Origin: Verrucomicrobiia bacterium
GTDB taxonomy: Bacteria > Verrucomicrobiota > Verrucomicrobiia > Limisphaerales > DASXHY01
Assembly: GCA_036272195.1 (NCBI GenBank)
Contig: DATAZE010000049.1
Location: 1 to 64,000 of the forward strand
Direction of reading: 5' to 3'
Length of the DNA: 64,000 nt
Each line of letters opens with the position of its first letter. The stretch's first letter is position 1. Of the stretch, positions 1-51,023 are shown piece after piece. The notes below the pieces were generated by a model that was not told the origin of the DNA, did not search any database, and was given only the letters and a program-made list of their open reading frames with translations. A program made the translations under genes and the position numbers.

Positions 1-211
1 GCAATGGACCGACGGCATGTTGTACCCGGTATTGCATCGGATGGAAAACAACGGCTGGATCAAGTCGCGCTGGGTGAAGATGGAGAACGGCCGGAAGCGG
101 AAATATTATTCGGTGAAAAAGGACGGGACGCGCGCGCTCGACGAACAGCGCGCGCAATGGCTTAAAGTCCACAGCGTTCTGACTCAATTATGGGGAGAAC
201 AATATGCGTAA
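1..211 (+). CDS. PadR family transcriptional regulator (5' partial, window starts inside gene)
   Basis: C-terminal PadR-like winged-helix motif (LYPVLHRMENNGWI...YYSVTKDG...). Stop TAA 209-211 overlaps ATG of next gene (ATGCGTAA). Confidence 0.7.
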   Translation, partial: QWTDGMLYPVLHRMENNGWIKSRWVKMENGRKRKYYSVKKDGTRALDEQRAQWLKVHSVLTQLWGEQYA

Positions 212-1061
212 CCTCGAAGAAAAAATCGCCGATTGGCGCGAGCAAATGGCCGCGGGGGGAATCAAGTCGCCCACGATCCTCGACGAATTGGAAAGCCATT
301 TGAGAGAGGAGATTGATATCAGGCTGGCTTGCGGCGACTCGGAATCCGCTGCTTTTGAACGCGGGGTTGTTTGGATCGGAACCCCGGGTGCGATACAAGC
401 CGAGTTCAACAAGGTGGAACGTACAGGTTGTCTGCCAATGAAAATTGGCGCAACGGTGTGGGCCGTATTGAGTCTCGGGGAGGCGATTGTGTTGTCGGGG
501 CTAATGTTTTCCGGAACGCTTCATTTACTCGTCGCGACACATATTTTTTGCCTCTGCGTGGGATATCTGGCGTCTTTTATCACCGGCGGATTGGCCATCT
601 ATTACGCTTACCGCCATTGGTTCGGGAACTTCTCGACCGCACAGCGACAATCCGTGGAGCGTGCGGTTCTTTGGTTCAGCCAGGCTGCTGCCGGACTGGC
701 CGTCGTGGGGTTCATCCTCGGCGTTTTGTGGAGCATACAAAATAGCGGCACCTATTGGGGCGGCACTCCGCGGGAGATCGGAGGACTGTGCGCTTCGGTC
801 TGGCTGGTGGTTTTGTGGAGCGTGCAACAGTTTTTTCGGAAGGACGCTTACGCGCGTATGCAGGCGTGCATCGGCGGGAATGTAATTATTGGTCTGGCAT
901 GGTCCGGAGCCGTGGTTTTGAGCGGCGACTCTCTGCCACGCCACCTCGGCGATTATTGGTTTATCGAACTTTTCCTTGGCTTGCATCTGGTCGTCTTCGC
1001 GATGGGACTCTCGCGCCGATTGAGCGGGCTAAATCGTCAACGAAAGGAATATGGTGTTTAA
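204..1061 (+). CDS. membrane protein, paralog 1 of PadR-linked family (conserved ~65-aa N-terminal cytoplasmic domain + multi-TM region)
   Basis: N-term motif I-x-[DE]WR-x-QM-x-GGIK-x3-[IV]LDELESHLRE[ED] shared with ORFs at 1051, 1720, 2787, 48498(-). Hydrophobic TM segments after aa ~75. ATG overlaps padR stop. Confidence 0.6.
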   Translation: MRNLEEKIADWREQMAAGGIKSPTILDELESHLREEIDIRLACGDSESAAFERGVVWIGTPGAIQAEFNKVERTGCLPMKIGATVWAVLSLGEAIVLSGLMFSGTLHLLVATHIFCLCVGYLASFITGGLAIYYAYRHWFGNFSTAQRQSVERAVLWFSQAAAGLAVVGFILGVLWSIQNSGTYWGGTPREIGGLCASVWLVVLWSVQQFFRKDAYARMQACIGGNVIIGLAWSGAVVLSGDSLPRHLGDYWFIELFLGLHLVVFAMGLSRRLSGLNRQRKEYGV

Positions 1062-1707
1062 CCTCGATCCAGCAATCACCGAGTGGCGGCGGAAAATGGC
1101 TGCCGGTGGAATCAAATCCCCCGCCGTGGTGGACGAACTCGAAAGCCATCTGCACGAAGACGTGGAACAGCAAATGCGAGCCGGAACCAGCGCCCGGGAG
1201 AGCGAGGCAAATTACCGCGTGAGCAATTAACCTCAAGCGGGTCAAAACAATATGCTTGAACTTGACCAGGCCAGGAGAAACCGGACACGAATGCTTTTGC
1301 AACGATGGTCGCTCATTGTCGGAATTGCATTTGTCTATTCCACCATGGCGGTTACGTGGTTCATCGGTTTGCGGCAGGGAAAAATCGAACTCACGTGGAT
1401 CGAAGTCGTTCTCGCGTTGGGCGCGATGGCACCAATGGTCCTGCTGGGTCGCGCCGGGCGAGCGCTGGCGAAATTCCTGCCGCTCGTCCACGAAAACTGG
1501 GTCATTGTCATGGCGCTCTCTGCGCTCTTCCTCGGGGCGGCCGTATTGAGAACGTTTTTCAATGAGCTATCGCCGGCCAATCTCGTTCAGGTCCAGGTGA
1601 TCGCGCTCTGGAGCCTTTCGCCGACGCTTGGATTTGGAAGCTGCGTTTCGGCCTGGTACGACCGGTCGCTGGCGGCACGGGAGAACGCGAGGACGGTCAA
1701 CGTTTAA
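1051..1707 (+). pseudogene. paralog 2 of the same family, interrupted by in-frame TAA at 1228-1230 (N-domain 1051-1230, TM part 1252-1707 in same frame)
   Basis: 1051 and 1252 are in the same reading frame. Sequence across the stop (…YRVSN*PQAGQNNMLELDQARRNRTRMLLQRWSLIVGIAF) aligns with the paralog 4 linker (…QQIGQLERLKAEFEKTETNERKLMKRGLIIGAGV). ATG at 1051 overlaps stop of paralog 1 (ATGGTGTTTAA). Confidence 0.45.
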
Positions 1708-1719
1708 AAAACTTCGGTT

Positions 1720-2781
1720 ATGTTCGATCTCGATCTGGCAATTTCGGAATGGCGGCGGCAAATGTCCGCTGGCGGAATCAAGTCGCGCGAAGTGCTCGCC
1801 GAGTTGGAAAGCCACCTGCGCGACGATGTAGAACAACAAATGCGCTCCGGCATCGCCGCCGAAAAGGCATTTCATGAAGCGGTGCGGCGGATTGGTCCCG
1901 CGGACAAAGTCCGAGTCGAATTTGCCAAGGTGGCTGCGCCTCCCGCACTGTCCGGCATGAAATTGTTGCGCGTTTGTTGTGCTGGCATGGCCGTGTTTAT
2001 TGCCGTCATTGAGACCTGGCTGCTGCTCATGTCTGAAGTGACACCGGTGGAGCGAATTTTAGGAATGACGTTTGTTTGTTTGATCGCGGCTTACGTAGGC
2101 GCCCTTCCCTATCTCAATCAAAGACTGTTTCCGGGCGTGCGCGGCGCTGCGCTGAGAAATGTGCTCGGCGCGGTCTGTAATTTCGGAGGATTGTTATGGG
2201 TGTCGCTGGCCCTCCTTGGCGCTTTGAACGTGATTCGTTTGCCGAATGGAATTCTTTTCGATCTAGTGGGCTGGTCACTGCTCGGCGCCGGGACCGCAAC
2301 GATTTTTGTGATCGCGCACGGAACTGATTGGGATCTGCTCGGGCTTTGGAGCCCGGCGGTCAAGCAGTGCTTTGAAACCGCCACCGAGGAGGCATTTCGG
2401 TTTCGCCACGATTTTGTCGGCACCGAACATGTGTTGCTCGGGTTGCTGCAATCCGATGACAGAATCGTTTCAAAGGTCTTGGGAAAGTTGGACGTAAGCC
2501 GCGAAACAGTGCGTGCAGAAATTGAAAAAATTGTCGGCCTCGGGCCGCAATTGCAATCGACCCCAAAACACGCACCGATTTACACACCACGGGCGAAGAA
2601 GGCCATCCGCCTCGCAATGAAAGAGGCGCGGGATTTGAAACGCGACCGTGTGGAAGCGGAGCACATTTTTCTGGGGTTGCTGCTGGAAGGCAGCGGCGTG
2701 GCGGCGCTGACTCTCAAAAACCTGGGCGTGAACCCCGGCGCTGCGCGCTACGAAATTCTCAAGGAATCACGCCTCGCTTAA
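1720..2781 (+). CDS. paralog 3: N-terminal family domain + ~4 TM helices + C-terminal Clp_N (ClpA/B/C N-terminal) double-repeat domain
   Basis: C-terminal ~140 aa: FVGTEHVLLGLLQSDD..VSKVLGKLDVS...TPRAKKAIRLAMKEARDLKRDRVEAEHIFLGLLLEGSGVAALTLKNLGVN = canonical two-repeat Clp_N fold signature. The N-term motif matches the family. Confidence 0.7.
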   Translation: MFDLDLAISEWRRQMSAGGIKSREVLAELESHLRDDVEQQMRSGIAAEKAFHEAVRRIGPADKVRVEFAKVAAPPALSGMKLLRVCCAGMAVFIAVIETWLLLMSEVTPVERILGMTFVCLIAAYVGALPYLNQRLFPGVRGAALRNVLGAVCNFGGLLWVSLALLGALNVIRLPNGILFDLVGWSLLGAGTATIFVIAHGTDWDLLGLWSPAVKQCFETATEEAFRFRHDFVGTEHVLLGLLQSDDRIVSKVLGKLDVSRETVRAEIEKIVGLGPQLQSTPKHAPIYTPRAKKAIRLAMKEARDLKRDRVEAEHIFLGLLLEGSGVAALTLKNLGVNPGAARYEILKESRLA

Positions 2782-2786
2782 CCAAT

Positions 2787-3215
2787 ATGTTCAACCTCGA
2801 ACACGAAATCGCGGAATGGCGGCAGCAAATGATCTCCGTGGGGATCAAAAATCCCGCCGTGCTCGATGAGTTGGAAAGTCACCTCCGCGAGGATATGGAG
2901 CACAGAATTCTGTATGGCGAAGCGCAAGACACCTTTCAAAAGGCAACGCAACAAATCGGCCAACTGGAACGGCTCAAGGCGGAATTTGAAAAAACGGAAA
3001 CAAACGAAAGGAAGCTTATGAAACGAGGTCTCATTATCGGCGCCGGAGTCATTGGCATTTTGGTAGGCATGGGGTTTGTAACACCGGCAGTGGCGCAATA
3101 TCAGCATGAAGGAGTGATGAAGAACGCCGAACCGTGGTTGTTTCTACTCGGAAGCCTGCTCACGCTGGCGAGCTTTGGTTTGGCGATTCGAGGCCTGAAA
3201 AAGAGCCGGGCTTGA
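2787..3215 (+). CDS. paralog 4: N-terminal family domain + 2 TM helices
   Basis: MFNLEHEIAEWRQQMISVGIKNPAVLDELESHLREDMEH... followed by hydrophobic segments. Confidence 0.6.
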   Translation: MFNLEHEIAEWRQQMISVGIKNPAVLDELESHLREDMEHRILYGEAQDTFQKATQQIGQLERLKAEFEKTETNERKLMKRGLIIGAGVIGILVGMGFVTPAVAQYQHEGVMKNAEPWLFLLGSLLTLASFGLAIRGLKKSRA

Positions 3216-3297: not shown

Positions 3298-3371
3298 TGG
3301 CCGATGGTGTAATGGTAACACAGTGCCCTTTGGAGGCATTATTCATGGTTCGAATCCATGTCGGCCAGCCA
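3298..3371 (+). tRNA. tRNA-Gln (anticodon UUG), CCA encoded
   Basis: Manual cloverleaf: acceptor TGGCCGA/TCGGCCA, D-stem GTGT/ACAC, anticodon stem GTGCC/GGCAT with loop CTTTGGA (U33, anticodon TTG, R37), T-arm CATGG-TTCGAAT-CCATG, discriminator G. Confidence 0.85.
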
Positions 3372-48003: not shown

Positions 48004-48498
48004 TCAATGTTTGGCCAGGCTTTGCTTCTTCGCAAACCACAAGGCAATCGTCGCGATCCATCCAAAGGCGATCAGGACCGACCACAGCGTCGCGTGCAAG
48101 TAAGGCACATTGTAGGAGTCATAGAGTCGATCAAAGTCGCCGCCCTTCAGGGTTGGGATAACGATTTCGATTATCCAGCGGCTGAAATAGATTCCCGCCG
48201 TCGCCGTCGGGATCAGCCAACCGGTCAGTGAAAAAAAACGGATTGGTGTTTGCATGGTGTGTGTTGGTTTGAAACGGTCTACTTTCTTGAATTCCGCAAT
48301 AAGACGCTCGGGTTCTCCCAGACGTTGAAAGGCCTGTGCAAGTGCGCGTTGTTCGGATGTTCCCAAACTCGTCAACTGCTCGACCTCCTCGCGTAAATGC
48401 ATCTCCAATTCGTCCAGAGTCCGCGAACATTTAATTCCGCCTCCCTGCAACTGCTCTCGCCATTGCGCAATGACTATCTCCAAGTCAGGTGCGTTCAT
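48004..48498 (-). CDS. paralog 5 of the PadR-linked N-terminal-domain family (N domain + 2-3 TM), solitary copy
   Basis: MNAPDLEIVIAQWREQLQGGGIKCSRTLDELEMHLREEVEQ...LIAEFKKVD matches the motif of the genes at 204-3215. A 6-bp inverted repeat ACATAG-N5-CTATGT lies ~30 bp upstream of the track ORF start (48534). Confidence 0.6.
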   Translation of the reverse strand: MNAPDLEIVIAQWREQLQGGGIKCSRTLDELEMHLREEVEQLTSLGTSEQRALAQAFQRLGEPERLIAEFKKVDRFKPTHTMQTPIRFFSLTGWLIPTATAGIYFSRWIIEIVIPTLKGGDFDRLYDSYNVPYLHATLWSVLIAFGWIATIALWFAKKQSLAKH

Positions 48499-48734
48499 GC
48501 GCGTTTTATTCTCATCAGACATGGAATGCGACAATACATAGTGACGCTATGTATGTCAAGTGAAGTTATTGTATTGTGGATTTGTGAATTTCGCGGAACC
48601 AGATTACGATCCGCCCTCTCTTACAAAGGCGGGCATATCGGTTGAAGGGTGCCAAACCGAATGAATAGGGGTCGGTGCGTGAGAGTCTAACTTATATGAC
48701 ACGCCGTAGAAATCGCGTAAGTTAATTGTGAGAT

Positions 48735-51023
48735 ATGAAGGCAAAGCTTTTCCAAAGGTGCGGGTTGGCCCTCTTTCTGGCGCTCATCCCCCTTTTAGGC
48801 GGATGCGACCAGGAAACCGCCAATTCTGCGACCGTTCCCAATGTTGTCACCAGCCAACCGCCGGTTGACTCAACCGCAGCCCCGGCACCCGCCCTTGCCG
48901 ACACGAACCAAGCCGTAGCGCCGGCCGCGACGCCGCAGGAAACCGAGCAGGAATTGGAGAATGCCCCTGGGAAGATCATTTCCACACCGGATATAGGTTC
49001 CACTAACGTAAGCAATAACCCCCGCCTGACCGAACTCGTCAAACTGGTCGAGGCAGGACTTGGAGAAAACGTGCTGATTGCCTACGTCACCAATTCCCCA
49101 ATGGCTTTCAATATTTCCTCCGACGATATTCTCTATCTCAACGACTTGGGGACCCCGGAAACGGTGGTGACCGCGATGCTCCAGCGTGATCAGCAGGCCA
49201 ATCCCGCGGCTGCTCCGGTCGCGGCCACACCTGCTCCGGCACCCACTCAGCCACAATCCCCTTACCTTCCCTATGCCAATCCCGGGCCCGGGCAACCGCC
49301 GCCGCCCGCCGACGGAACTTATGCGGACCCGAACATGACCGCGCAAACCGACGTGGCTGTGCCGCCGTTGACACCCACGCCGGCTACCGAGGAGGACGTG
49401 CAACAGGCGCCCAACGGTTCCTATTCCTACTTTTGCGATTCATTGTCGCCCTACGGAAGCTGGGTTGATATCGAGGGTTATGGACCTTGCTGGCAACCGA
49501 CTGCCGTGGTCGCAAATCCCGGCTGGCAGCCGTATGGCGATCACGGGCATTGGGCATACACCGACAGCGGTTGGTGTTGGGTCTCGGATTATTCGTGGGG
49601 CTGGGCACCGTTTCACTATGGCCGTTGGTTCCGTCATGGCCGTTTCGGCTGGTGCTGGGCGCCGGATACCGTGTGGGGTCCCGCATGGGTAAGCTGGCGC
49701 TATGACAACTCTTATTGCGGCTGGGCTCCGCTGCCGCCGGCGGCTTGTTATCGTCCGGGATTCGGTTTCACTTATTTTGGACGTTCGGTCGGTTTCGATT
49801 TCGGTTTTGGGCTTTCGGCGAATTGGTTTGTGTTCGTCCCGCTAGGCCATTTTCACGATCGGGATTTTTACCATCACCGGATGCCGCATCGCGAAGTCAC
49901 TAAAATTTACGCCAACACAACCATTCACAACCAGATCATCCGCGGTAACCATAACAATCTCATCAACCGTGGAGTTCCGGTGGATCGCGTGGCAGCCGCC
50001 AGCCACACTCAAATCCACCCCGTCCGTATTCGCGCGGAGGCCAACGCGCCAAGATCCGGCCAACTGGATCGGGACGGCCGGTCCTTGTCGGTGTTTCGTC
50101 CTGCGTTGCCGGTTCCGAAGCCGAATAACAACGCGCGGTTGGTGGGCGAAGGTGTGCAGCCGAACCCGCAATTTAATCTGCATTCCCGTATCCAGCAGGC
50201 TCCCGTGCAGCATAATCGGGCGGTTACTGCCGGTCCCGGACGCCAGCCGATTATTTCCAATCCGGCAGGAACTCCGGGACGTGACAATCACCTGCCTCAA
50301 GCGGGCAACGAACGGCCGAATTCCATCATTATGCACGGACCCAACAACGGGAATTCATTACGCGGAAATCCCGCACAGACCGCGCCGCAAAATCTGGGGC
50401 ACGGGCCCGTATTCCAACCTCAAACTCCCGCGCAACCGGGACAGGAAAACAATCACCGCGTGGTTATTCCGCAAGGGCAACAACAATCAGGTCAACCAAT
50501 TCAGCCCACACCACGGCAGCAGAATCAACTGCCGCCGCCTACATTTAATCGTCCCATCAATAACGGACCGGACTTGCTACAGCAGCAGCAGCAACAGCAG
50601 CAGCAGCAACAGCAGCAGCAGCAACAGCAGCAGCGAGAACTACAGCAACGAGAATTCCAGCAGAGACAGTTTCAACAACCACAACAGCAGCAGCCAGTGA
50701 CGCCGACGCCGCGGCAAGACGGGCCGCCACGCGCTTTCGAATCACCTCGTGCGCGCGACCAGAATGCCAATCCGGGATTCCACTCTGAGCCGATCGCCCC
50801 CACGCCGCCTCAACGAAATTTTGAACCACGACAGGCGCCGGAAGTGCATTCAGCGCCACCGCAATTCAGCGCGCCAGCCCGCCAGGAGAATAACTCGGGC
50901 AGAAGCATTGGGGGCGGAGGCGGGAACGGCAATGGAAACGGTAACAATAATGGCGGCGGAGGCGGGGGCCGTGGTGGGAATAACGGTGGGGGCAATGGCG
51001 GCGGGGGCGGTCGCAATCGTTAA
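48735..51023 (+). CDS. Pro/Gln-rich lipoprotein with Trp/Gly-rich central domain, poly-Gln tract and Gly/Asn-rich C-terminus
   Basis: Lipobox LLGGC; P/A/Q-rich linker; W-rich block (YGSWVDIEGYGPCWQP...WCWVSDYSWGWAPFHYGRWFRHGRFGWCWAPDTVWGPAWVSWRY); Q18; C-terminal GGGGGNGNGNGNNNGGGGGGRGGNNGGGNGGGGGRNR. Confidence 0.6.
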   Translation: MKAKLFQRCGLALFLALIPLLGGCDQETANSATVPNVVTSQPPVDSTAAPAPALADTNQAVAPAATPQETEQELENAPGKIISTPDIGSTNVSNNPRLTELVKLVEAGLGENVLIAYVTNSPMAFNISSDDILYLNDLGTPETVVTAMLQRDQQANPAAAPVAATPAPAPTQPQSPYLPYANPGPGQPPPPADGTYADPNMTAQTDVAVPPLTPTPATEEDVQQAPNGSYSYFCDSLSPYGSWVDIEGYGPCWQPTAVVANPGWQPYGDHGHWAYTDSGWCWVSDYSWGWAPFHYGRWFRHGRFGWCWAPDTVWGPAWVSWRYDNSYCGWAPLPPAACYRPGFGFTYFGRSVGFDFGFGLSANWFVFVPLGHFHDRDFYHHRMPHREVTKIYANTTIHNQIIRGNHNNLINRGVPVDRVAAASHTQIHPVRIRAEANAPRSGQLDRDGRSLSVFRPALPVPKPNNNARLVGEGVQPNPQFNLHSRIQQAPVQHNRAVTAGPGRQPIISNPAGTPGRDNHLPQAGNERPNSIIMHGPNNGNSLRGNPAQTAPQNLGHGPVFQPQTPAQPGQENNHRVVIPQGQQQSGQPIQPTPRQQNQLPPPTFNRPINNGPDLLQQQQQQQQQQQQQQQQQQRELQQREFQQRQFQQPQQQQPVTPTPRQDGPPRAFESPRARDQNANPGFHSEPIAPTPPQRNFEPRQAPEVHSAPPQFSAPARQENNSGRSIGGGGGNGNGNGNNNGGGGGGRGGNNGGGNGGGGGRNR
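50580..50633 (+). repeat. (CAG/CAA)18 trinucleotide microsatellite encoding poly-Gln within the lipoprotein gene
   Basis: cagcagcagcagcaacagcagcagcagcaacagcagcagcagcaacagcagcag read directly from the sequence. Confidence 0.85.

Follow-up and report, generated by a model that had tools for sequence, protein, structure and literature searches.

A ClpC-type Clp_N domain fused to a HAAS-type (perm_prefix_1) domain in a Verrucomicrobial PadR cassette: a candidate phospho-arginine reader

The question raised by this locus is what an N-domain of the ClpC type, lacking an ATPase, may do in a membrane protein encoded within a PadR-headed gene array. The protein comprises 353 aa (open reading frame 1720-2781, plus strand) and consists, from the N- to the C-terminus, of a HAAS/perm_prefix_1 domain, four hydrophobic helices, and a Clp_N domain. 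The features of the window, which is the whole 64-kb stretch of DNA that was analysed, are collected in Table 1.

Table 1. Coordinates of the cassette, its Clp_N protein and the unlinked fifth HAAS gene.
Feature	Position	Strand	Basis
3' part of padR gene, cassette head, cut by window edge	2..211	+	Pfam PadR E 2.6e-11, NCBIfam padR_acidobact-type E 2.2e-16 (64-aa fragment)
HAAS-prefixed paralogue 1, 285 aa, multi-TM	204..1061	+	N-domain alignment; perm_prefix_1 below threshold
HAAS-prefixed paralogue 2, in-frame TAA at 1228-1230	1051..1707	+	Translation, sequence
HAAS/perm_prefix_1, four TM helices and ClpC-type Clp_N protein	1720..2781	+	Pfam, NCBIfam, phmmer, AF2, Foldseek
HAAS/perm_prefix_1 domain, aa 1-70, presumed PadR-coupling module	1720..1929	+	NCBIfam NF038403
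Four-helix membrane anchor, aa 79-201	1954..2322	+	AF2 helices, hydropathy
Cytoplasmic Clp_N domain, ClpC-NTD type, aa 208-353	2341..2781	+	Pfam, phmmer vs PDB, Foldseek
G234-T235-E236-H237 = ClpC G30-T31-E32-H33 (pArg2 pocket glutamate)	2419..2430	+	120/120 family members
T289-P290-R291 = ClpC T81-P82-R83 (helix 5 N-cap, predicted other wall of pArg2)	2584..2592	+	120, 119 and 120 of 120
HAAS-prefixed paralogue 4, 142 aa, short TM tail, last cassette gene	2787..3215	+	N-domain alignment
tRNA-Gln after cassette	3298-3371		
Fifth HAAS-prefixed gene, unlinked, 172 aa	48004..48522	-	N-domain motif and alignment
Promoter/operator, same as at padR cassette heads	48523..48562	-	Sequence, alignment, 13-mer statistics

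The initial annotation had itself raised the possibility of a frameshift in a neighbouring clp gene. On that explanation, a frameshifted or truncated clp gene would have been joined by chance to a membrane reading frame. However, no clp gene adjoins 1720-2781, the protein is identical across NCBI, JGI, and Logan assemblies, and its AF2 model is confident over the whole length (pLDDT 91.6, pTM 0.73). The frame is not a frameshift artefact because more than 100 full-length homologues of like architecture exist, at 40-78% identity and mostly from Verrucomicrobiota. The artefact reading was consequently rejected, and its probability is negligible. It is a genuine gene, conserved in Verrucomicrobiota, and its product is a membrane protein. 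In a profile search of genome contigs seeded with the family alignment, true clpC genes dominate, and locus L006 holds the sole family member.

The C-terminus proved to be, as the initial annotation had proposed, a two-repeat Clp_N domain without an AAA+ module. Pfam calls Clp_N (PF02861) in two stretches at E 1.4e-23 (83 bits, cutoff 20.7), and AF2 places eight helices at aa 212-352, in which two repeats of about 53 aa form one eight-helix domain. The motifs that had been quoted, GTEHVLLGLL and EAEHIFLGLLLEGSGVAALTLKNLGV, do lie at aa 234-243 and aa 312-337, respectively. In a phmmer comparison of aa ~208-348 with the PDB, ClpC N-domains rank best (4p15 at 1e-29, B. subtilis ClpC at 1e-28, Mtb ClpC1 NTD at 1e-25), and Foldseek aligns the domain with PDB ClpC NTDs at TMt 0.85-0.89 and rmsd 1.4-2.3 A, with 37-44% identity. 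The 353-aa protein has no Walker motif and no AAA+ match, and terminates five residues past the Clp_N domain; the NCBIfam ClpA, ClpB, and ClpK models cover the N-domain part only, with 34-37 bits against cutoffs of 993-1900. With the NTDs of B. subtilis and S. aureus ClpC and of Mtb ClpC1 it shares the eight-helix two-repeat fold, 37-51% identity, and identical residues at the second phospho-arginine (pArg) pocket, pArg2. In contrast to ClpC, it has neither AAA+ rings nor an M-domain, and the pArg1 pocket, R9, and R122 are degenerate.

A free-standing Clp_N is not unusual, which corrects the initial annotation: known cases are Mtb ClpC2 and plant ClpT, together with AAA-less Clp_N cluster representatives that number in the hundreds. 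Some of these representatives, in other phyla, are fused to sigma-70 factors, Ser/Thr kinases, LuxR, or ornithine carbamoyltransferase (OTCase). Plant ClpT1/T2 and other AAA-less forms resemble the present domain in standing alone. ClpT differs in that it assembles the ClpP core, shows only remote similarity (E 1e-6 to 1e-4), and occurs without HAAS, TM helices, or PadR context.

The N-terminal domain is recognized by NCBIfam perm_prefix_1 (NF038403; 39.2 bits, cutoff 30), with helices at aa 4-17, 23-42, 47-58, and 61-69. Pfam HAAS (PF22564) reaches a sub-threshold 14 bits on the 353-aa protein and is the top, likewise sub-threshold, family in 9 of 22 N-domains (best E 0.0017); the FtsX-prefixed (perm_prefix) form is counted as HAAS (PMC11237479). 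Positions W11, R12, G19, E28, L29, E30, H32, and L33 are invariant in the alignment, and G59, which belongs to the GxP region, is kept in at least 90% of sequences. This HAAS type has no solved homologue, since an N-domain profile found no credible match in the PDB (best E 0.083). Neighbouring reading frames share this N-domain, which bears out the earlier statement that Clp_N is fused to an N-domain common to the PadR-linked paralogues.

Membership of the gene in a PadR operon, also part of the initial annotation, holds well beyond the window, in which a padR fragment heads the array. In nine of ten distinct family loci, padR directly precedes, in the same orientation and in many cases with an overlap, a tight array of one to five HAAS-prefixed genes, exactly one of them with Clp_N. 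The exception, L089, has a cassette without an adjacent padR and retains the operator described below. The padR fragment, which at its stop runs 8 nt into the following gene, is orthologous to complete 110-aa PadR genes (L003, L005, L086-L088, L090, and L091). Among the companion genes, orthologues of paralogue 1 in L086 and L088 match Pfam Cytochrom_C_asm barely over the cutoff. The TAA in paralogue 2 leaves a 59-aa N-domain frame and a 151-aa TM frame, and is present in assemblies L001 and L002 as well. In a second lineage, P0243, Pfam HAAS is above its cutoff, the protein has three Clp_N domains, and the gene overlaps an upstream padR; the Clp_N-HAAS fusion has evolved on at least one further, independent occasion.

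No protease, adaptor, or sigma gene is linked to the cassette in the ten loci, and the N-domains give no anti-sigma Pfam match except RskA_N at E 0.03 in one of 22. The anti-sigma-like regulated proteolysis that the initial annotation had suggested thus finds no partner there, and the anti-sigma reading is ruled out by the absence of a linked sigma gene. [quoted passage not shown] It shares with that dyad, and with the perm_prefix_1 and padR_acidobact (TIGR03433) families, a probable N-terminal three/four-helix HAAS-type domain, an adjacent stand-alone PadR, and variable C-terminal TM or intracellular modules on the HAAS domain. Clp_N is absent from the published HAAS partners, namely PspC, LiaF-TM, Toastrack, FtsX/MacB, FtsW, VanZ, and pentapeptide repeats, and that work (PMC11237479) describes neither HAAS arrays with as many as five paralogues per PadR nor the operator. 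No paper on Clp_N in combination with PadR came up in a literature search.

The hydrophobic helices span aa 79-104, 109-135, 139-168, and 178-201. The TM2-TM3 loop holds three K/R residues, and hydropathy and loop charge fit an N-in/C-in orientation; the four helices thus place both the HAAS and the Clp_N domain in the cytoplasm. The anchor is absent or halved in some homologues: among the 120 closest, with TM classes assigned by linker length and AF2 helices, 20 lack TM segments altogether, and in 6 the linker fits two. Because the linker suits 0, 2, or 4 helices, the two soluble domains always lie in one compartment. The membrane-tethered Clp_N of the initial annotation is thus correct for the 353-aa protein but does not define the family, and membrane tethering as an essential feature was rejected because of the soluble and two-helix-linker forms.

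The ligand site was examined using the pArg pocket definitions of PMC13657355 and PMC13345244. The site-defining residue of pArg2 is E32 (PMC13657355); the T81 wall would complete this pocket, its geometry being deduced by pseudo-symmetry from the description of ClpC2 (PMC13345244). At the pArg1 positions (ClpC T7, T105/E106), the 353-aa protein has S211, A313, and E314, which do not make up a pArg1 pocket. Across the family (n=120), position T7 is T41/S30/A24/D15, T105 is kept in 22/120, and R9 is lost, whereas true ClpCs retain all of these residues, and those of GTEH and TPR, in 79/79 cases. The pArg1 pocket of the family has thus decayed while pArg2 stays invariant. This pattern points to strict selection on pArg2, and phospho-arginine binding is predicted.

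The contrast between the two pseudo-symmetric pockets acts as an internal control, with GTEH/TPR of pArg2 at 119-120/120 and pArg1 decayed. Both motifs are also helix caps, and folding could partly explain their conservation. Their decay in the second repeat argues against this.

An invariant pocket may also serve another ligand. Candidates are an acidic helix or tail through which the protein would self-associate, as apo-ClpC2 does, a different phospho-ligand, or a partner such as PadR itself; Clp_N would then act in the cassette as a generic module for interaction or oligomerisation. The pArg pocket of ClpC2 also docks an acidic residue of the adjoining protomer (PMC13345244), and the many unrelated fusion partners of AAA-less Clp_N suggest a versatile binding module. 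However, the retained residues are exactly those of the pArg site, in a phylum in which McsB is encoded beside ClpC. We regard a ligand other than pArg, and such a generic role, as unlikely.

The residues outside pArg2 bear on a regulated-proteolysis switch, in which the HAAS protein would sequester PadR, Clp_N would dock ClpC, McsB, or an adaptor, and degradation under stress would free PadR. Holding a regulator at the membrane is an established principle, and ClpC NTD pArg pockets touch M-domains at rest and bind MecA (PMC13657355). The NTD-M-domain and NTD-AAA1 contacts are, however, unconserved in the family: T7 is variable and R122 is replaced by L in 61/120, in addition to the loss of R9, and it is R9 and R122 that anchor the ClpC resting state. 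The lack of linked protease, adaptor, or sigma genes argues against such a switch as well, and the soluble forms imply that membrane sequestration is not essential. Taken together, a proteolysis switch seems quite unlikely.

A predicted source of phospho-arginine is encoded widely in the phylum. In the loci from the family-seeded contig search, which also supplied the ClpC control set, clpC is immediately preceded by mcsB in 51 of the 79 PVC/Omnitrophota cases, and the McsB matches pass the NCBIfam protein-arginine-kinase cutoff. The 64-kb window has no mcsB match. In Methylacidiphilum, mcsB and clp react to stress.

A promoter/operator of the form TTGACA-TACAT-N9-ATGTA is conserved at all nine visible cassette heads; in the present DNA, the cassette's own promoter falls outside the window. 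The exact palindrome TACAT-N9-ATGTA occurs once in the 64 kb, before the fifth HAAS gene, where TTGACA (-35) is followed by the palindrome, a -10-like TATTGT, and, 8 nt on, the ATG. The promoter/operator has no match in 833 kb of control loci. The 19-bp palindrome is predicted to be the PadR operator.

The only visible targets of this operator are HAAS-prefixed genes themselves, those of the cassettes and the fifth gene, which would suit a pure decoy or sink. Here Clp_N would draw pArg-substrates, adaptors, or NTD-directed toxic peptides away from the competing ClpC N-domain and sequester them, in TM forms at the membrane, without any signal to PadR, and HAAS would serve feedback on the protein's own level alone. 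The 47-51% identity to resident Verrucomicrobial ClpC NTDs and the role of ClpC2 as a sponge favour such competition. Against it stand the strictly conserved fusion to the PadR-coupling domain, repeated independently in P0243, and the only moderate conservation of the hydrophobic groove for cyclic peptides and unfolded substrate (Y/F80 in 82/120). A pure decoy, with feedback as the sole task of HAAS, is quite unlikely in our estimation. Of the adaptor/decoy role given in the initial annotation, the decoy part is plausible by the parallel with the ClpC2 sensor and sponge, which has been characterised in experiments, but the adaptor for proteolysis is a minority reading.

Signalling from Clp_N to PadR is favoured because the fusion to the PadR-coupling domain is strictly conserved and has arisen independently in P0243. 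The reading to which we give most weight, tentatively and at somewhat less than even probability, is a ClpC2-like reader of phospho-arginine or another ClpC ligand in an autoregulated PadR-HAAS cassette, a reader that would pass a signal to PadR and perhaps buffer the ligand as well. The HAAS domain would couple the protein to the PadR repressor from the operon head, and the optional, even-numbered TM anchor would hold it at the membrane with its soluble domains in the cytoplasm. McsB would make phospho-arginine-tagged proteins; on their build-up, these or another ClpC-NTD ligand would fill the Clp_N pocket. Occupancy would then alter the HAAS-PadR interaction, thereby relieving PadR repression at TACAT-N9-ATGTA. 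The cassette, including the Clp_N protein, would be induced, and this protein could then buffer the ligand.

The closest precedent for such a reader is ClpC2 (Rv2667), a mycobacterial/actinobacterial AAA-less Clp_N protein that responds to pArg and cyclomarin, represses its own transcription, and soaks up antibiotic as a sponge (PMC10030653, PMC13345244). Common to both are a free-standing ClpC-NTD-like domain without ATPase, retention of one of two pArg pockets, a link to transcriptional control of the own gene, and a likely shared logic of sensor and buffer. The analogy is not residue-for-residue, because ClpC2 retains the opposite pocket, pArg1 (T99/T100, T197), whereas the present family keeps pArg2 (E32, T81). 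ClpC2 also has its own N-terminal DNA-binding/dimerisation domain, which is not found in the 353-aa protein; there, the N-terminus is HAAS plus four TM helices, and DNA binding would be left to a separate PadR via HAAS. The usual four-TM anchor and the Verrucomicrobiota host are further differences. The Clp_N part matches ClpC2 structures at E 2.7e-11 to 1e-6 and 28% identity, compared with 37-44% for ClpC NTDs.

To our knowledge, what is understood of phospho-arginine tagging comes almost entirely from Firmicutes, with transcriptional read-out only via CtsR and, very recently, ClpC2. The family offers a candidate for a compact, pArg-responsive switch in a Gram-negative PVC phylum in which mcsB-clpC, though widespread, is unstudied. 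Its parts, a domain of 146 aa, a repressor of 110 aa, and an operator of 19 bp, lend themselves to simple tests. It is conceivable, if rather doubtful, that the ClpC-type Clp_N is in general a portable pArg reader, feeding the McsB-dependent pArg load into transcription via HAAS-PadR in Verrucomicrobiota. If true, pArg would for the first time be linked to transcription outside Actinobacteria and Firmicutes, a HAAS-PadR system would for the first time have a defined chemical input, and a portable reader would explain the AAA-less Clp_N fusions found elsewhere. If the ligand proves to be something else than pArg, a single pocket under such strict conservation nevertheless flags a defined binding function worth identifying. 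The predicted HAAS-PadR "alternative two-component system" would gain a concrete input domain with known ligand chemistry, and would thus become experimentally tractable.

The product of the Clp_N gene at 1720-2781 matches Pfam PF02861 in two stretches (E 1.4e-23), and its top PDB matches by phmmer are ClpC N-terminal domains (NTDs) from B. lehensis (1e-29), B. subtilis (1e-28) and Mtb (ClpC1, 1e-25). Mtb and Streptomyces ClpC2 and plant ClpT are much weaker matches. An AlphaFold2 model built from 41 homologues is confident (pLDDT 91.6, pTM 0.73), and its residues ~208-350 align in Foldseek with ClpC NTD structures at TM 0.85-0.89, rmsd 1.4-2.3 Å and 37-44% identity. These results bear out the initial annotation, which had recognized a two-repeat Clp_N fold from two motifs and anticipated a double PF02861 match; both motifs are confirmed. 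Its statement that an AAA+ module is absent also holds, as NCBIfam ClpA, ClpB and ClpK models match by their N-domain part only. There is no clp gene near 1720-2781. Family proteins are named in databases only as 'Clp protease N-terminal domain-containing protein'; NCBI holds an identical protein under this name (Verrucomicrobiae bacterium, 353-kb contig). Over 100 further full-length homologues share 40-78% identity, with sources including Verrucomicrobiae, Pedosphaera, Verrucomicrobiales and one bin labelled Binatia. The probability that the gene is an artefact is negligible.

Four short helices make up the N-terminal ~70 residues, which score 39.2 bits against NCBIfam perm_prefix_1 (NF038403, cutoff 30). 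Pfam HAAS is the commonest weak match of cassette-type N-domains (9 of 22, best E 0.0017, below threshold), and the HAAS-defining paper counts FtsX-prefixed, perm_prefix-type proteins as HAAS (PMC11237479). Between the soluble domains, the model places four hydrophobic helices (79-104, 109-135, 139-168 and 178-201). The K/R-rich TM2-TM3 loop is consistent with an N-in/C-in topology, which would therefore place the Clp_N domain on the cytoplasmic side, together with ClpC and its ligands. A ClpC-dependent switch for regulated proteolysis, as proposed in the initial annotation, is distinctly improbable. When the 120 best family matches are grouped by how long a linker separates HAAS from Clp_N, 94 have a four-helix-sized linker, 6 a two-helix-sized one and 20 a soluble linker of 26-32 residues. 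The invariant feature of the family is HAAS and Clp_N on one membrane side, the tether being optional. Across 1.84 billion cluster representatives, searched exhaustively, 470 match at E <= 1e-30; among 143 further representatives from the top 150, ~42 carry the family N-domain and ~98 are other AAA-less Clp_N proteins, in which as many as 11 Clp_N stretches are matched.

Features of the window and of the compared loci
Feature	Source	Coordinates	Strand	Description
padR	window	2-211		truncated at window edge; heads window cassette
Paralogue 1	window	204-1061		HAAS + multi-TM domain
Clp_N gene	window	1720-2781	+	353 aa; last ~146 residues a complete two-repeat Clp_N domain
Satellite HAAS gene	window	48004-48522	-	fifth HAAS-prefixed gene, unlinked to cassette; 172 aa; promoter/operator through 48562
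Paralogue-1-type orthologue	L086	3111-3953		HAAS + multi-TM domain
Paralogue-1-type orthologue	L088	6761-7606		HAAS + multi-TM domain
mcsB	L045	4950-5960		directly upstream of clpC (McsB probe)
mcsB	L039	374-1339		directly upstream of clpC (McsB probe)
mcsB	L009	4146-5156		directly upstream of clpC (McsB probe)
padR + HAAS-Clp_N(x3) pair	L092	158-2408		second, sequence-distinct pair; P0243 gene overlaps upstream padR

Genomic context was compared across ten distinct family loci. In nine of them, a padR gene (~110 aa) lies upstream on the same strand, frequently with an 8-nt overlap with the next gene, and is followed by one to five genes that all open with the same N-domain. Each array has just one gene with Clp_N, and its rank differs between loci. 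The flanking genes are unrelated from locus to locus, and the cassette is therefore self-contained. In the window, the order is padR, paralogue 1, paralogue 2, the Clp_N gene, paralogue 4 and tRNA-Gln, and the N-domain of the Clp_N gene also opens the neighbouring ORFs 204-1061, 1051-1230 and 2787-3215. Paralogue 2 (1051-1707) has an in-frame TAA at 1228-1230 that separates its HAAS domain from its TM part and is also present in the JGI and Logan assemblies. Paralogue 2 is a pseudogene or else a gene that is split naturally. The multi-TM domain of two paralogue-1 orthologues matches Pfam Cytochrom_C_asm marginally above threshold (CcsA/CcmC-like; 31.7 in L086 and 30.3 in L088, vs 29.9); this type would be HAAS fused to a possible haem-handling TM module.

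Each of the eight loci in which the region upstream of padR is visible carries the element cTTGACATACATAGc-N6-7-(A/T)ATG(T/C)AT there. This element can be parsed as a -35 hexamer, then the palindrome TACAT-N9-ATGTA and then a -10-like TAgT, with the start codon only 6-12 nt further on in most loci and up to 25 nt in three. The element's 13-mer is exact in seven family loci and deviates at one position in L003. L089, the sole locus without an adjacent padR, also has it with one mismatch, ~105 nt ahead of the Clp_N gene. The 13-mer has zero occurrences at <=1 mismatch in 833 kb of non-family loci. The element is a phylogenetic footprint of a predicted repressor site that overlaps the promoter core. 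The window cassette's own promoter lies past the left edge, and the single exact palindrome match within the 64 kb (48535-48553) stands in the same full promoter context, cacTTGACATACATAGCGTCACTATGTATTGTcgcattccATG, directly upstream of the satellite HAAS gene. TTGACA-TACAT-N9-ATGTA precedes this gene exactly as it precedes the padR cassettes of other genomes, and the gene is probably a member of the same PadR regulon. The simplest reading is that PadR, presumably by binding this element, autoregulates the cassette and at least one satellite HAAS gene. The start codon only 6-12 nt past the -10-like element (L003, L005, L086, L090, L091 and window 48519-48562) suggests that padR and satellite HAAS transcripts are leaderless or near-leaderless. 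Divergent from the satellite gene lies a low-complexity ORF (48735-51023, +, 762 aa). Its N-terminus is signal-like and its middle rich in W, G and F; some 22 consecutive glutamines and a tail rich in Gly and Asn follow.

The ligand pockets were surveyed in an alignment of 120 family Clp_N domains and 79 true ClpC NTDs from PVC, Omnitrophota and other loci, in B. subtilis numbering. In ClpC, T7/E106 define the first phospho-arginine pocket (pArg1), E32 the second (pArg2) and Y80/M92 the hydrophobic groove (PMC13657355). The ClpC2 pArg1 pocket is formed by the alpha1 N-terminus and the alpha2-alpha3 and alpha5-alpha6 loops (PMC13345244); by pseudo-symmetry, pArg2 would comprise the alpha5 N-cap (T81-P-R83), the alpha6-alpha7 loop and the alpha1-alpha2 loop (GTEH).

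Conservation of pocket residues
Residues	Site	Family (n=120)	True ClpC (n=79)
G30-T31-E32-H33	pArg2	120	79
T81 / P82 / R83	pArg2 (by pseudo-symmetry)	120 / 119 / 120	79 / 79 / 73 (6 K)
E115 / G116 / G118 (alpha6-alpha7 loop)	pArg2 (by pseudo-symmetry)	111 / 103 / 118	79 / 61 / 79
T7	pArg1	T41, S30, A24, D15	79
T105	pArg1	22	79
G104	pArg1	45	79
R9	near pArg1, M-domain contact	lost	79

In this alignment, the family strictly retains pArg2, and pArg1 has decayed. The two repeats share one fold, so the decayed one provides an internal control and argues against a mere folding requirement for GTEH and TPR. The ClpC resting-state anchors R9, T7 and R122 (L in 61/120) are unconserved, consistent with a Clp_N domain no longer seated on an AAA+ ring. 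The groove residue Y/F80 is retained in 82 of the 120 domains, and K85 is K or R in 96. A pocket that binds a partner other than pArg, or mediates self-association, is unlikely.

The protein-arginine kinase McsB is present in the phylum. A McsB probe of approximate sequence matches directly upstream of clpC in 51 of 79 ClpC loci from Verrucomicrobiota, Planctomycetota and Omnitrophota, including Akkermansia, Prosthecobacter, Lacunisphaera, Udaeobacter and other Verrucomicrobiae. All four matches re-tested exceed the NCBIfam 'protein arginine kinase' cutoff (NF002194; 393-427 bits vs 385). The Firmicute-type mcsB-clpC operon thus has a wide distribution across these Gram-negative phyla. In the verrucomicrobium Methylacidiphilum, stress induces mcsB and an adjacent clp gene (PMC8024496). 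The probe has no match in the 64-kb window.

In mycobacterial ClpC2, an AAA-less protein, the Clp_N domain takes cyclomarin, rufomycin and pArg as ligands; once a ligand is bound, ClpC2 leaves its own promoter, and the protein made on induction acts as a sponge for that ligand (PMC10030653; PMC13345244). The family looks like the same logic divided between two polypeptides, with Clp_N-HAAS as the sensor and PadR as the DNA binder. The tentative reading, held at slightly less than even confidence, is that the cytoplasmic Clp_N domain would read pArg or another ClpC ligand and relay the signal via HAAS to PadR, which would derepress the cassette; the protein may also buffer the ligand. Of the steps in this reader model, the analysis shows the architecture, topology logic, PadR linkage, operator and pocket conservation and the mcsB-clpC pairing in the phylum; the ligand identity, HAAS-PadR contact, sign of regulation and buffering are inferred. 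A pure decoy, which would act without signalling, is improbable.

The literature search found no paper linking Clp_N with PadR or HAAS, and Clp_N is absent from the published list of HAAS fusion partners (PMC11237479). P0243, which is soluble, 632 aa long and from a distinct sequence lineage, provides independent support: it has HAAS (Pfam, 37.2 bits vs a cutoff of 27) and three tandem Clp_N domains, and its gene overlaps a padR upstream. This second, sequence-distinct pair shows that the HAAS-Clp_N fusion arose at least twice. HAAS, S1 and Clp_N occur together in P0343. AAA-less Clp_N proteins form a large set (P0122-P0375), some of them with 3-11 matched Clp_N stretches in tandem. The fusion partners of others include sigma-70 (P0327), Ser/Thr kinases (P0329, P0373), UVR with a LuxR HTH (P0370) and, frequently, ornithine carbamoyltransferase, a curious fusion in view of arginine chemistry. 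Such varied partners indicate that Clp_N is a widely reused module of regulatory proteins. The cassette is consequently not categorically new, combining a ClpC2-like Clp_N sensor with a HAAS-PadR dyad; the same wide reuse strengthens its reading as a sensor.
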